The notes under the pieces: generated by a model
Told to the model about the DNA's origin: nothing
Databases searched by the model: none
The model's input: only the letters and a program-made list of their open reading frames with translations
In this document: positions 7 through 40,980 of the stretch, one piece after another
Position numbering within the stretch: the stretch's first letter is position 1
How the letters are laid out: each line of letters starts with the position of its first letter
Made by a program: the position numbers and the translations under genes
Assembly: GCA_035291665.1 (NCBI GenBank)
Contig: DATDRP010000006.1
Coordinates: forward strand, 9,786 to 73,785
From: Patescibacteria group bacterium
GTDB lineage: Bacteria; Patescibacteriota; Microgenomatia; UBA8517
Direction of reading: 5' to 3'
DNA length: 64,000 nt

Positions 7-110
7 GGATGATCCTCCTCTGGAGGAAATTCTGACCTGCCTGCCGGCAGGCACGGTATGTCATCCTCCCTCAAGGGAAATCACGGACTTTAGTCCGTGG
101 AGGATGTCAT
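7..110. repeat. GC-rich nested palindromic repeat element, copy 1 (core ATGTCATCCTCC...GGAGGATGTCAT)
   Basis: Inverted repeats read directly: tcctcc/ggagga (13-27), perfect palindrome gcctgccggcaggc (39-52), and atgtcatcctcc (58-69) paired with ggaggatgtcat (99-110) enclosing the inner hairpin cacggact/agtccgtg. The same core recurs at 5375-5425 and 27888-27940. Confidence 0.7.
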
Positions 111-258
111 AGTCTGAAATAGAAATCGCCTTTCTTTTGTAGGCTGGTAGCATTATTCACAAAATAGATTTGAAACAAAATCTTTATATGTTAGCATTAT
201 ATCAATAGTTGTCGAAGATTTTGCAACCTAAATTGCGAAAAGCTTACAGAATATATAT

Positions 259-1776
259 ATGAAATTAAAATTTAATAAAGACGATCTAAAAGAAGAGGTG
301 TCGGCTTCTGATCAAACAACCTATCGCGTGGATCCCATGAAAACCCCACTTGGCAAACAGGCAGTTAATAATTCCGTTATAACGCCAACAACGCCCCTTG
401 AGGAGGCACCTCCTTCGCATGAGGAATTTGTCTACACGCCGAAACCGCAATTTGACGTGGCCAAAAAACTTAAATTTGTTTTACCGGTTTTTTTTATAAT
501 CATTTTATTAGTACCTCTTTACTTTGTCGTAACAAAATTGAATTTGTTTAGCAAAAAACCTATTGGGACAAAGGGGGAAATCGTCTGGTGGGGGATTGGA
601 CTTGATGAAAATGTGGTTGCTCCGGTCATTGAAAAATACCAGGAAGAGAATCCCAAAGCGAAAATAAAATATATAAAACAATCGGAAATTGATTACGGAC
701 AAAGGTTGCAAAACGCAATTGATCAAGGAGTGGGACCGGATATTTTTTCGTACCATAATACCTGGACGCCGATGTTCAAAAACGATTTGGATGTGGTCCC
801 GGAAACTGTTTATACTAAAGAAGAATTCGCCACGACTTTTTATCCGGTAGTATCCCGCTTTGCATCGACATCCGAAGGGTTAGTGGGAATTCCACTGGAA
901 TACGATGCGTTGACTTTGTACATTAACGAAGACATTCTTTCTCAGGCAGGGAAAACCGCTCCAAGGACCTGGGATCAGTTTAAGGAGGTGGCAATAGCCC
1001 TGACTACAAAAGGTGAGAAGGGTTTTGTTCTCCAATCCGGAGCGGCAATGGGATTAACTGAAAATGTTGACTATTGGCCGGAAATAGTCGGACTTTTGAT
1101 GCTTCAAAATAAAGCCAATATATTAAAACCTGAAAACGATACCGGTCCTGAGGCAATTACTTTTTATACTGATTTTTTTGCTAAAGATAAGGTTTGGGAC
1201 GAAAGCCTTCCGAATTCTGTTCAGGCGTTTATTGAAGGTAAGGTGGCTATGATGATAGCTCCTGTGAGAGTTTATCAGGATATAAAAAGCAAAAACCCAA
1301 GTTTGCGTTTTCGGACATCAAATTTACCGCAGGTCAGAAGGGATGATCCAAATGAACCCGAAGTGGCATATGCCACTTATTGGCTGCAGGGCGTATGGAA
1401 AAAAAGTGCCAGTAGGGATCTGTCTTGGGATTTTCTGAAATATCTGTCACAAAAGGATACGCTTTTATCTCTCAATCAGCGCATGGCCGAACTGGGTGTG
1501 GCCTCAAAAGCATATCCCAGGATTGATATGCGGGATTTGATCATAAACGACCGCTACTTGGGTTCAATAGCCGCACTTGCACCAACGGCAAATTCCGGTT
1601 ATTTGGCATTCAATACTCAAGACGGTCCTGACGGGGTAAACACTCTTTTGGGTAACGTTTACCAAGGGGGGATAGCCAGCTTGACAACTGCTCCGAGAAG
1701 ATCAAATATTGATGCAGTTGTGAAGAAAATGAACGTAGAATTGGCGAAAGTTGTGTTCAAGTATGGCCTGAGATAG
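259..1776 (+). CDS. ABC transporter extracellular solute-binding protein (family 1, sugar-type), N-terminal membrane anchor
   Basis: 505 aa. A TM segment FVLPVFFIIILLVPLYFVV is followed by an SBP_bac_1-like body (IVWWGIGLDENVVAPVIEKYQEENPKAKIKY..., WLQGVW...). Intact ORF. Confidence 0.65.
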   Translation: MKLKFNKDDLKEEVSASDQTTYRVDPMKTPLGKQAVNNSVITPTTPLEEAPPSHEEFVYTPKPQFDVAKKLKFVLPVFFIIILLVPLYFVVTKLNLFSKKPIGTKGEIVWWGIGLDENVVAPVIEKYQEENPKAKIKYIKQSEIDYGQRLQNAIDQGVGPDIFSYHNTWTPMFKNDLDVVPETVYTKEEFATTFYPVVSRFASTSEGLVGIPLEYDALTLYINEDILSQAGKTAPRTWDQFKEVAIALTTKGEKGFVLQSGAAMGLTENVDYWPEIVGLLMLQNKANILKPENDTGPEAITFYTDFFAKDKVWDESLPNSVQAFIEGKVAMMIAPVRVYQDIKSKNPSLRFRTSNLPQVRRDDPNEPEVAYATYWLQGVWKKSASRDLSWDFLKYLSQKDTLLSLNQRMAELGVASKAYPRIDMRDLIINDRYLGSIAALAPTANSGYLAFNTQDGPDGVNTLLGNVYQGGIASLTTAPRRSNIDAVVKKMNVELAKVVFKYGLR

Positions 1777-1799
1777 AAAGCTTTGTTTCGTTTTACCTC

Positions 1800-1854
1800 T
1801 TGACAAGAAAATCAGTTGACTATTAAAATAGCACTCGAAGAATTAGTTTGCTAA
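1800..1854 (+). promoter_or_regulatory. groESL promoter (TTGACA at 1800-1805, A/T-rich -10 at 1821-1829) followed by a degenerate CIRCE operator (aTAGCACTC-N9-GtttGCTAA, 1828-1854)
   Basis: It matches the CIRCE consensus TTAGCACTC-N9-GAGTGCTAA with 3 mismatches and lies directly upstream of groES. A much better CIRCE sits upstream of hsp20 at 9063-9089. Confidence 0.5.
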
Positions 1855-1860
1855 ATAATT

Positions 1861-2178
1861 ATGGGTAAATCTAAAAAAACTAAAAAACTTGCCTTGAAAC
1901 CTACAGCAGGATATGTTCTTCTGGAACCTCTTGAAGCTGAAGAAAAAACTGCTTCCGGTATATATCTTCCCGACAGCGTGTCGGAAAAACCTCAAAAAGG
2001 CCGGGTTCTGGCGGTTGGGGAAGACGAAGTAACGGATACAGGAACAGTAAAAAAAGCTCCGGTAAAAGCTGGTGATACTGTTATTTATAAAAAATGGGGA
2101 GGAAGCGAAGTAAAGATTGAAGGCACAGAATATTTATTTGCAAAGTTTGAAGATATTTTAGCCATTGTAAACGGCTAG
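1861..2178 (+). CDS. groS: co-chaperonin GroES
   Basis: 105 aa with LKPTAGYVLLEPLEAEEKTASGIYLPDS...GRVLAVGE, typical Cpn10, immediately upstream of groEL. Confidence 0.9.
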   Translation: MGKSKKTKKLALKPTAGYVLLEPLEAEEKTASGIYLPDSVSEKPQKGRVLAVGEDEVTDTGTVKKAPVKAGDTVIYKKWGGSEVKIEGTEYLFAKFEDILAIVNG

Positions 2179-39634: not shown

Positions 39635-39783
39635 GACCCATTGGATTTGACGTGTTCAACATTCTTCTTTAATCTATTAGATAGATTCAATATAGAATGT
39701 TTGGAATTATACTAATTGGGAATAGGAGTTTGTTTAGAAATTAGTAATTAGATATTAGAAATTTTCCGAAAGGAGGTGAGATT

Positions 39784-40350
39784 ATGCTATCAAAAGTAGT
39801 TGAAGAGATTTCAGATACAATTACGGCAGCAATTAAGGGAGCTGATGACATTTTAACTTCGCTTCGAACAGCAGTCAAAAATCAAGTTGGCGGTTCTTTG
39901 AAAGATGTTGGAGAACTAACAGGTACAACAATGGGTGTTGTTTCCGATACCGTTGCGGCGGCTCTTAAAAGCGCATCAACGATGGGAACTTCGGTTGTAG
40001 ACGCAACGAAACAGGCAGTAATGGGAGCGGTTAGTGCAGTTGCAGATGCGGGAGGAAGTGTTGTTGATGCTGTTAATACCTCAGTATCAGGAGCTGTAAA
40101 AGCTGCAGGTGATGTCGGAGGTGATGTTGGTAAAATAGCTGTATCAGCTGTAGAAGGAGCGATTGATTCTGTTGGAAAGCTTGGAAAAGACACATCTGAA
40201 GCAGCTGGAGCTGCAGTTATGTCTGCACTTAAAGCTGCGGAAGGAATCGGGGATGAATCAGCAAGGACTGTTCGTCAAGCATTAATGTCTGCAGCATCTC
40301 TTCCAAGGGATGTTGTTGAAAGAGTATTGAAGGGAAGCAAAGACGCGTAA
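39784..40350 (+). CDS. Ala/Gly/Val-rich tandem-repeat protein (about 22-residue VVDAxxxxVxGAVxAxxDxGGx units), unknown function
   Basis: 188 aa with AAGGAGGTGAG 5 nt upstream of ATG. Repeats read directly: VVSDTVAAALKSASTMGTS / VVDATKQAVMGAVSAVADAGGS / VVDAVNTSVSGAVKAAGDVGGD / VGKIAVSAVEGAIDSVGKLGKD. Confidence 0.55.
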   Translation: MLSKVVEEISDTITAAIKGADDILTSLRTAVKNQVGGSLKDVGELTGTTMGVVSDTVAAALKSASTMGTSVVDATKQAVMGAVSAVADAGGSVVDAVNTSVSGAVKAAGDVGGDVGKIAVSAVEGAIDSVGKLGKDTSEAAGAAVMSALKAAEGIGDESARTVRQALMSAASLPRDVVERVLKGSKDA

Positions 40351-40357
40351 ATTTAGA

Positions 40358-40771
40358 TTATATTTTAATCGTTTGGATTTGTTTAACGCTGATCCAGGCT
40401 GACATAGCGCCATATCCTTTTTTATTTATATTGAAAGGTTTAGTTTTTTGCGGAGACTTAAGATATATTAGTAAACAATATTTTGCGTTTCTTACCCTAT
40501 TGTAAACACTCTCATAATCAGTTATTGCAATTCCGTCAGAATGGCCGAACTTTGTCAGAATATTTTTGATTTCAATTGCGTTCAGGTTTTCAATTTCAAT
40601 AACTTTGGAAACTTTTGCTTTTGCTGAAATAGAACCTCCTGAATTTTTAAAGTAAATAGTGTCGCCCTTTTTTACTCTTCCCCAGGGAATTGATTTTCGT
40701 ACACTCCAGCGCGATTCGATTTTTTTCTCTCCGGAGATAATCTTGGGAATCATTCCCCATGATTTTTTCAT
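40358..40771 (-). CDS. ASCH-domain protein (RNA-binding PUA-like fold)
   Basis: MKKSWGMIPKIISGEKKIESRWS...KGDTIYF is the ASCH N-terminal signature. The start is set at Met 40771; the longer track N-terminus would be encoded by repeat-derived DNA. Confidence 0.5.
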   Translation of the reverse strand: MKKSWGMIPKIISGEKKIESRWSVRKSIPWGRVKKGDTIYFKNSGGSISAKAKVSKVIEIENLNAIEIKNILTKFGHSDGIAITDYESVYNRVRNAKYCLLIYLKSPQKTKPFNINKKGYGAMSAWISVKQIQTIKI

Positions 40772-40789
40772 AATTGCGACATGTGTAGT

Positions 40790-40980
40790 CATGAAGCAAT
40801 TATATGAAGCTCCACTGGCTGACGCCACTGGTAACATCTGCTCTAGCTTCGCCTGCCTACCGGCAAGGCAGGTTCATCCACTAGCTTATGGTTCGACAAC
40901 GCTTACCATCCTGAGTATGTCGAAGGATGCTCATGGTTTTATGCGAAGGAGGATGGAGGAGTGCTAAGTTAGAATGTAGT
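40790..40980. repeat. degenerate member of the palindromic element family in a divergent intergenic gap
   Basis: ccactgg...ccactgg, gcctgcctaccggcaaggcagg (compare gcctgccggcaggc at 39-52), catcctgagtatgtcgaaggatg (compare catcctcc...ggaggatg), and gaaggaggatggaggag. Confidence 0.45.

Follow-up and report, generated by a model that had tools for sequence, protein, structure and literature searches.

A short gene-less element, probably derived from an IS200/IS605-family insertion sequence, in Woesebacteria and related Patescibacteria

Palindrome-associated transposable elements (PATEs), described in haloarchaea (PMC3119063) and in Geobacillus stearothermophilus (PMC10055086), are gene-less elements made from the fused ends of an IS200/IS605 (IS1341/IS605-type) element. 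They carry subterminal hairpins on one strand, lie 3' of a conserved target motif, and insert without duplicating their target. The G. stearothermophilus insertion sequence ISGst follows the same logic, with the target motifs TTTAT and TTCAT and with gene-less PATE-like relatives (Meers et al., PMC10055086). Here we describe a family of dispersed repeats in a 64-kb stretch of a Patescibacteria group bacterium genome (contig DATDRP010000006.1; the whole stretch is called the window below) that are very probably mini-transposons of this kind: gene-less units of about 105 nt in which the left and right ends of an insertion sequence of the IS200/IS605 family are fused. The resemblance to known PATEs extends to the fused ends, the hairpins on a single strand, the lack of target duplication, and the conserved motif 5' of the left end, here TTAT or TCAT. 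Unlike those PATEs, the repeats reside in a candidate-phyla-radiation lineage (Woesebacteria/Microgenomates), form a very short unit (99–111 nt) in which each end is a long imperfect hairpin, lie in frame inside a gene in about one-sixth of copies, and have no cognate transposase yet seen in their host genomes.

A second point of comparison is IS608 of Helicobacter pylori, whose transposase TnpA binds subterminal hairpins and whose insertion proceeds without gain or loss of DNA (PMC3201880, PMC5934647). Its left cleavage falls 3' of TTAC, 19 nt 5' of the foot of the left hairpin, and its right cleavage falls 3' of TCAA, ending 10 nt 3' of the foot of the right hairpin, which is followed by A-10 and G-9. 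The sites are recognized by guides, the 4 nt located 5' of each foot (AAAG with TTAC and GAAT with TCAA), with guide base 1 pairing to site base 2, guide base 2 to site base 1, and guide base 4 to site base 4 (PMC3201880, PMC5934647).

Four members of the family were recognized in the window, all of them on the + strand, with the following parts:

1–110, +: copy 1, with a divergent left end cut by the 5' edge of the window and a TCCTCC..GGAGGA hairpin at 13–27
36–56, +: nested hairpin of copy 1, CCTGCCTGCCGGCAGGC, also found in loci L046, L051, and L013
58–110, +: complete right end of copy 1, with guide GAAA at 77–80, hairpin 2 at 81/82–99/100, and 3' end ..GGATGTCAT
5312–5315, +: TTAT, the target (transposon-adjacent) motif of copy 2, abutting it on the 5' side
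5316–5425, +: copy 2, the canonical 110-nt element, between open reading frames (ORFs) 4311–5129 and 5488–5946
5316–5372, +: left end of copy 2, with outer stem 5318–5327/5363–5372, guide AAAA at 5329–5332, and hairpin 1 at 5333–5357
5375–5425, +: right end of copy 2, with guide GAAA at 5392–5395 and hairpin 2 at 5396–5415
5416–5425, +: 10-nt tail of copy 2, AGGATGTCAT, with the terminal TCAT at 5422–5425
23570–23613, +: 44-nt single-hairpin derivative consisting of CTGCGTTCAAGAAAAC left-end sequence, one hairpin, and GGATGTCAT, in a gap between convergent genes
27835–27838, +: TCAT, the target motif of copy 3, native gene sequence
27839–27940, +: copy 3, 102 nt, in frame and antisense to its host gene, whose protein gains MTSSTDHGPWFPLKEDDISSSIPPRQGRGFLEIA
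27851–27854, 27855–27871, and 27888–27940, +: left guide GAAA, hairpin 1, and right end of copy 3

The original prediction, made from the sequence of the window alone, had described these repeats as built from three swappable modules that recombine, termed Y, X, and Z. The quoted sequences are present where it placed them: the Y arms, ATGTCATCCTCC..27–29 nt..GGAGGATGTCAT, are exact at 58–110, 5375–5425, and 27888–27940, with a half-site at 23602–23613; X hairpins lie at 5389–5416, 23578–23605, and 27848–27875; and Z occurs at 5322 and 23572. The three are not free modules but fixed-order parts of one 102–110-nt element, arranged (with a caret marking an element boundary and TAM denoting the transposon-adjacent motif) as TAM ^ Z–hairpin 1–GATGAATTGAAC.CTGAT–Y(hairpin 2). 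Z, as the 5' conserved part, forms the left end together with an X hairpin, Y with its inner X-like hairpin forms the right end, and X is simply either of the two variable hairpins. The proposed family of nested hairpins is real at four of five sites, the fifth (40790–40980) containing no member, and the reported GC content of 60–65% applies to the Y part only (in 40-nt windows), whole copies having 40–55% in a window of 37.8% GC.

Lining up 59 oriented copies yielded the consensus (t)TTAT ^ AACAGCATTCAAGAAAAC–hairpin 1–GATGAATTGAACGCTGAT–ATGTCATCCTCC–TTTAGAGG–GAAAC–hairpin 2–GGAGGATGTCAT ^, and the ends can be searched for as TTAT ^ ..TTCAAGAAAAC–hairpin on the left and hairpin–AGGATGTCAT ^ on the right. 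The elements are 99–139 nt long, mostly 105 or 108 nt, and have no coding capacity. Their left and right ends are not reverse complements of each other, and terminal inverted repeats are absent. TTAT stands directly 5' of 113 of 132 extracted left ends, and the element itself terminates in TCAT. A loose left-end pattern with two mismatches allowed gave too much noise in AT-rich sequence, and a covariance model built from 32 related copies was therefore used in its place. This model identifies copy 1 (53.8 bits, E 1e-11 at 29–116), copy 2 (113.6 bits, E 2.5e-27 at 5311–5431), and copy 3 (94.4 bits, E 2.5e-22 at 27834–27946), and, among the collected genome loci, about 60 copies that score more than 45 bits. 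Folded as single-stranded DNA, the three long copies have z scores from -4.4 to -5.3 (-4.44 for copy 1 and -5.33 for copy 2), and none of 200 shuffled sequences folds as well. The 44-nt element, preceded directly by TAAT (23566–23569), scores weakly by both measures (17.6 bits; z -1.5) and appears to have arisen by an internal deletion between the two hairpins.

The variants of the element arise through deletion or insertion rather than by recombination of free modules. In addition to the loss of the segment between the hairpins (window 23570–23613), they include a nested CCTGCC..GGCAGG hairpin in window copy 1, L013, L046, and L051, and 24-nt tandem units at several loci of one Woesebacteria genome, LBWP01. 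In this genome, one to three such units (taaaatcttaagctttgcttttga) lie between the left and right ends (L044 1469–1582, L005, L018, L020, L026, L032, L034, and L050), an arrangement that recalls the variable boxB module in the BOX elements of pneumococci, and the near identity of the LBWP01 copies suggests recent spread there. At L119 (1628–1760, element strand), a GC-rich insertion of about 70 nt (..CTCAGGATGACCCTGAGCCCCTCGGTCCTGAGCTCGGGGTCGAAGGAC..) is nested in the right end, part of it resembling window 40905–40925 (CCTGAG..GTCGAAGGA).

Direct evidence of insertion comes from copy 3, which interrupts a conserved gene:

26999–28588, -: host gene of copy 3, encoding a DUF4153 membrane protein of 529 amino acids (aa), against about 496 aa in homologs

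The encoded protein gives a single Pfam match (PF13687, 1.3e-34) running across the insert, and all eight DUF4153 homologs compared (50–76% identical, mostly about 496 aa) lack one 34-aa segment. In two related lineages, L056 and L057/L058, the orthologous gene is exactly 102 nt shorter at this site; L057 and L058 are two copies of one gene, both encoding the protein P0002, and are counted as one lineage. The covariance model finds no copy anywhere in these three loci. Since the empty site lacks exactly the 102 nt of the element, copy 3 is an insertion, with the junctions ..ttattCAT ^ AGCAA....GGATGTCAT ^ gaaag in element orientation. A further homolog, P0005, has a different, Ser/Leu/Arg-rich insertion of 43 aa (EAPHDLTVGESSPSASSGAESLRSKTSSRSSTSLRSGYFAKGD) at another site (columns 338–380 of alignment A2), which probably represents a different GC-rich repeat inserted in frame.

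Elsewhere, five additional copies lie in frame within conserved genes, with TTAT ^ A...TCAT ^ A junctions and no duplicated target. The target-site duplications that the original prediction proposed to check for are absent from copy 3 and from these other in-frame copies alike. The genes interrupted elsewhere, identified from sequence motifs only, encode a P-type ATPase, a MurC-like ligase, a D-Tyr-tRNA deacylase, and glycosyltransferases. In total, 13 of 81 nonredundant full copies lie inside reading frames open on both sides, and copies within genes occur in both orientations. The suggestion that the repeats sit at gene ends and in divergent gaps does not extend to copy 3, which lies within a gene. 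A classical MITE with duplication of TA or another target was considered and rejected: The empty site contains no TA, and the tetranucleotides to the left and right differ in most copies.

These insertions bear on the possibility, also raised in the original prediction, that the repeats are intrinsic terminators or local regulatory hairpins that arose in place. Some copies do follow genes, such as the 44-nt derivative in its convergent gap, and a short T-run comes after copy 2. A terminator would need a T-run and a fixed place after genes; instead, what comes after the hairpin is AGGATGTCAT and, beyond it, 3' flanks that differ between copies, the orientation of copies is independent of the neighboring genes, and the copies inside open frames do not occupy such a place. 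With the empty site at copy 3 demonstrating insertion and one 105–110-nt unit recurring in many species, we regard this explanation as the least credible of those considered.

The distribution of the element likewise agrees with mobility. A first scan for the exact Y pattern, using one genome per species, located Y in 55 stretches of 22 assemblies, mostly from Woesebacteria; the record titles of Y-bearing assemblies name Candidatus Woesebacteria, Blackburnbacteria, Microgenomates group, and Patescibacteria group. In a second scan, anchored on the left half only and hence unbiased for Y, the element was found in at least 118 metagenome contigs, with right-half variants in which both arms change together (ATGTCGTCC/GGACGTCAT, ATTCTC/GAGAAT, and AACATCTTCC/GGAAGATGTT). 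Confinement of the motifs to the window, which the original prediction held would make a mobile element unlikely, is thus contradicted by their presence in Patescibacteria (22 assemblies) and in metagenomes (at least 118 contigs), and together with the empty site at copy 3 this sustains its proposal of a MITE-like mobile element. A left-end scan of viral contigs gave no match, and literature searches yielded no account of repeats of this type, whether in Woesebacteria or in the candidate phyla radiation. The same element also occurs in metagenome-assembled genomes titled "uncultured Gammaproteobacteria" (L007, L009, L011, L014, L021, L022, L029, L030, L035, L038, L041, L048, L049, and L051), titles that are probably automatic placeholders rather than true taxonomy.

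The geometry of the ends closely parallels that of IS608. As in IS608, a guide tetranucleotide stands 5' of each hairpin foot, and the right tail (AGGATGTCAT) is exactly 10 nt long, with A-10 and G-9 following the foot; the left spacing is 17 rather than 19 nt, the target is TTAT rather than TTAC, the window copies contain no genes, and the outer stems of the element enclose both guide and terminal motif. The guides are AAAA for the flanking TTAT and GAAA for the terminal TCAT, while relatives of the L170/L177/L178 type have GAAT for TCAA, the pair identical to that of IS608. In window copy 3, whose flank is TCAT, the left guide is correspondingly GAAA. Across all extracted ends, guide base 1 and site base 2 form A-T 110 times, G-C 59 times, G.T 5 times, and A.C 7 times, being complementary in 169 of 188 cases (174 of 188 with G.T). 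Fisher tests of this association give 2.5e-6 for left ends alone and 3.7e-3 for right ends alone, P values that overstate independence because the copies are related.

The same ends are found around transposase genes. Locus L170 combines the same left half with 60 nt, a gene for a 379-aa TnpB (Pfam OrfB_IS605, 7.7e-22; Cas12f1-like TNB, 1.8e-16), and, directly after its stop codon, a right end of the form GAATC–hairpin–GAGTATGTCAA. The closest homologs of this TnpB, 72 and 95% identical, lie in units of tnpA (Y1_Tnp) and tnpB with the same end architecture and the gene order of IS608; two of these loci, L177 and L178, were reached via protein homology, independently of the DNA pattern. Their left ends read TTCGAGAAGGC–hairpin–GATGAATCGAAT or TTCAAGAAAGC–hairpin–GATGAATTGGAC, and their right end is as in L170. 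At the unit boundaries, ..TTAT ^ TCGAGAAGGC–hairpin–GATGAATCGAAT on the left and GAATC–hairpin–AGTATGTCAA ^ on the right, the left outer stem shows compensatory changes. Because the same ends bound tnpA/tnpB units, Z plus X can be identified as the left end, and Y as the right end, of an insertion sequence of the IS200/IS605 family, and the link to a Y1/IS200-like transposase offered in the original prediction is supported.

That prediction had also compared the repeats to REP sequences, and we considered whether they could be REP/REPIN-type elements moved by a REP-associated tyrosine transposase (RAYT). Short GC-rich hairpins dispersed between genes would suit this explanation, as would the implication of a Y1-type enzyme. 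Conserved GTAG is missing 5' of the hairpins, which are preceded by (G/A)AAAC instead, and the two hairpins are direct rather than inverted. Moreover, the ends match IS605-type elements bearing tnpA/tnpB and not a REP-flanked RAYT, although no genome-wide RAYT search was made, and we consider a REP/REPIN origin highly improbable.

The right-end motif is also present at the 3' end of a transposase gene or next to tnpB, and solo on plasmids, in unrelated bacteria. On a Klebsiella pneumoniae plasmid (CP031372.2; L185 2501–2535) and in 88 other Klebsiella plasmid records, a solo motif, GGAATC–CCCGTCCTTTAGGGCGGGG–AGGATGTCAA, sharing 91% identity with the window right end across 35 nt, sits in a gap that has no annotation and no tnpB beside it. 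Full tnpA-tnpB elements with matching ends have neighbors of their own: In L177, genes for a phage lysozyme and an anti-Pycsar protein (Apyc1) lie alongside (463–1149 and 3600–4451), and in L179 a gene for a MobA/MobL relaxase (1–1052). Autonomous partners may travel on phages or plasmids. A more speculative reading, which we hold to be doubtful, is that the gene-less copies act as scattered templates of guide RNA for a TnpB brought in by phage or plasmid.

The secondary structure of the element is maintained through compensatory change, and its copies show a strand bias. In a set of 98 copies selected through their left end alone, standard pairs make up 95.5% of cells, compared with 78.1% in shuffles and 34–48% when partners are slid by one to three columns. 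Both partners vary in 27 of 31 pairs, among them 10 of the 11 pairs of the Y outer stem. The alignment was fitted to the model, which favors structure, and the slid-partner controls argue that the signal is real. On the top strand, G.T outnumbers A.C by 88 to 45 (P = 2.4e-4), and in 83 of 118 copies (P = 1e-5) this strand is the one locally richer in G. The window has a positive GC skew along its whole length, and all four of its copies are on the + strand. A uniform orientation within contigs, as would reflect replication, was not observed, orientation being mixed with a 70% bias toward the G-rich strand. IS200/IS605 elements favor the lagging-strand template, a preference with which such a bias would agree.

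A structured RNA would offer another reason for hairpins to be kept, and the copies could primarily be noncoding RNA genes, either HgcC-like or miniature TnpB omega RNAs, transcribed from the element into its 3' flank; this could also hold alongside mobility. HgcC (RF00062), from Methanocaldococcus jannaschii, has the same order of conserved blocks as the element (hairpin–GAUGA..GAAC...GGAAC–hairpin–GGAGGA.GUCA), a similar size (about 130 nt), several copies per genome, and a high GC content in an AT-rich genome; it differs in being archaeal and in having been described as an RNA, and a connection with IS605 ends has been noted only for a tetraloop (PMC4615843). This right-end-like tetraloop was reported together with expressed PATE-derived RNA, HgcC itself also being expressed (Gomes-Filho et al., PMC4615843). 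With permissive thresholds, Rfam HgcC gives ordered matches of 30.0 bits in the window, at copy 2, and 29.4 bits in L014 (E about 1e-5), and the right end weakly resembles the 3' end of sot0042, a tnpB-overlapping RNA (13–18 bits). Both fall short of the gathering scores (30 versus 50 and 18 versus 88), and at gathering thresholds the only Rfam match in the window is a tRNA-Cys. The excess of G.T over A.C on the top strand is expected of an RNA but fits single-stranded DNA just as well. TTAT together with the first bases of the element reads TATAAC, resembling a putative -10 box. No TnpB gene, beside which an omega-RNA scaffold would be expected to lie, is present in the window or in any Patescibacteria-labeled genome locus; copies within genes in both orientations also speak against RNA genes; and hammerhead, C/D-box/k-turn, attC, and T-box cores were not found by eye. 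An RNA role for the element is possible from its sequence, but as the primary explanation of the copies it seems to us rather improbable.

Several observations weigh against a transposon origin of the repeats. Neither tnpA nor tnpB occurs in the 64-kb window or in the Patescibacteria-labeled genome loci L001–L055, and among the 176 loci collected by DNA pattern (L001–L176, of which three were fetched as homologs) only L170 contains tnpB and only L091 contains tnpA. Patescibacteria, one Gottesmanbacteria assembly among them, do harbor Y1 transposases (L091, L182, and L184), and in L091 an IS200-type tnpA lies near a related element, but the transposases' own ends differ. The IS200-type TnpA elements of L182, L184, and L091, with ends unlike the element, are accordingly not established as partners, and neither is a cognate transposase in Woesebacteria. 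Of the loci with full tnpA-tnpB elements, L177 looks to be carried by a phage and L179 by a plasmid. Related and thus nonindependent copies enter the orientation and covariation counts, with some loci in both collections, and local GC skew also depends on gene orientation. Finally, the outer stem of the right end, 10–12 bp and strongly conserved, buries the terminal TCAT, whereas in the IS608 model the terminal cleavage site must be free to pair with its guide; the conservation of this stem is unexplained by transposition alone. Most of the Patescibacteria Y1 transposase genes were found on very short contigs, which suggests that such genes are lost from bins.

If the element operates as IS608 does, a Y1 (HUH) TnpA supplied in trans would bind both subterminal hairpins of the single-stranded top strand and locate its cleavage sites through the 4-nt guides, AAAA with the flanking TTAT on the left and GAAA with the terminal TCAT on the right. 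The element would then be excised as a single-stranded circle and reinserted 3' of another TTAT or TCAT, without duplication. By the same analogy, TnpA would be the enzyme that moves these copies, and copies in this genome may still be mobile.

Several other features of the window lie outside the element family. The region 40790–40980, previously taken for a degraded copy, has no match to the covariance model or to Rfam and has only a CCTGCC..GGCAGG hairpin in common with copy 1:

40852–40872, +: CCTGCCTACCGGCAAGGCAGG hairpin, outside the element family, with no model match

This 21-nt hairpin (CCTGCCTGCCGGCAAGGCAGG) occurs at window 36–56 and 40852–40872, at L046 773 and L051 505, and in L013, L004, L115, L096, and L176. 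It is nested at differing positions in element copies and also stands alone elsewhere, and looks like an independent small insertion module. Window 40883–40954 has one 72-nt match (83% identity) at L140 3465–3536, a locus that also bears the start of a 16S rRNA gene. A second repeat family, between 16965 and 22775, comprises a 46-nt unit, AATAATTTGCTATGGAACGTCTGA.GTTCTC.GAGG.AGGTTTGAC, at 19419–19464 and 20714–20759 (91% identical), and a GGTTTGACGTTCTTCAAA-like inverted repeat in five copies at gene boundaries (16965, 19453, 20727, 20801, and 22746); it could be an operator or promoter motif. The tRNA-Cys (GCA) at 8293–8365 (-) is the sole curated RNA family in the window at Rfam gathering thresholds.

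Insertion within genes raises the question of selection on the element itself. The length is divisible by three in 56 of 80 distinct copies, clustering at 99, 102, 105, 108, and 111 nt. The frame ..DELNADMSSS.. is open through 62 of 76 copies, which include copies outside long ORFs, compared with about 14% of shuffles. These excesses are suggestive, although much of the signal comes from the two dominant length classes (105 and 108 nt). The family might have been shaped to survive inside genes, with element-level selection favoring translatable, frame-preserving mini-transposons in gene-dense candidate-phyla-radiation genomes; we hold this to be doubtful. Rickettsia palindromic elements, attributed to Ogata et al. 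in 2000, are reportedly short palindromic in-frame insertions in conserved genes of a small genome, and no enzyme is known to mobilize them. They have no sequence relationship to the present element, for which, in contrast, a parent transposon family has been identified, and a frame-preserving family would, if real, be their counterpart with a known parent transposon.

As a PATE of the IS200/IS605 family, the element is of a known kind and reveals no new mechanism; its interest lies in its host lineage and its frequent frame-preserving insertion into genes. Its identification connects HgcC, an archaeal RNA family, with elements of the PATE kind, built from fused left and right ends. Across its copies, guide and target motifs vary in step, as expected from the IS608 model, and the copies thereby provide a natural data set. 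For annotation, insertions of 33–37 aa in conserved proteins of these organisms are to be read as transposon-derived and not as lineage-specific domains. The element accounts for a high-GC repeat that recurs in the genomes of Woesebacteria and related Microgenomates and indicates that single-strand transposition of the IS200/IS605 type has acted in the very small genomes of the candidate phyla radiation.

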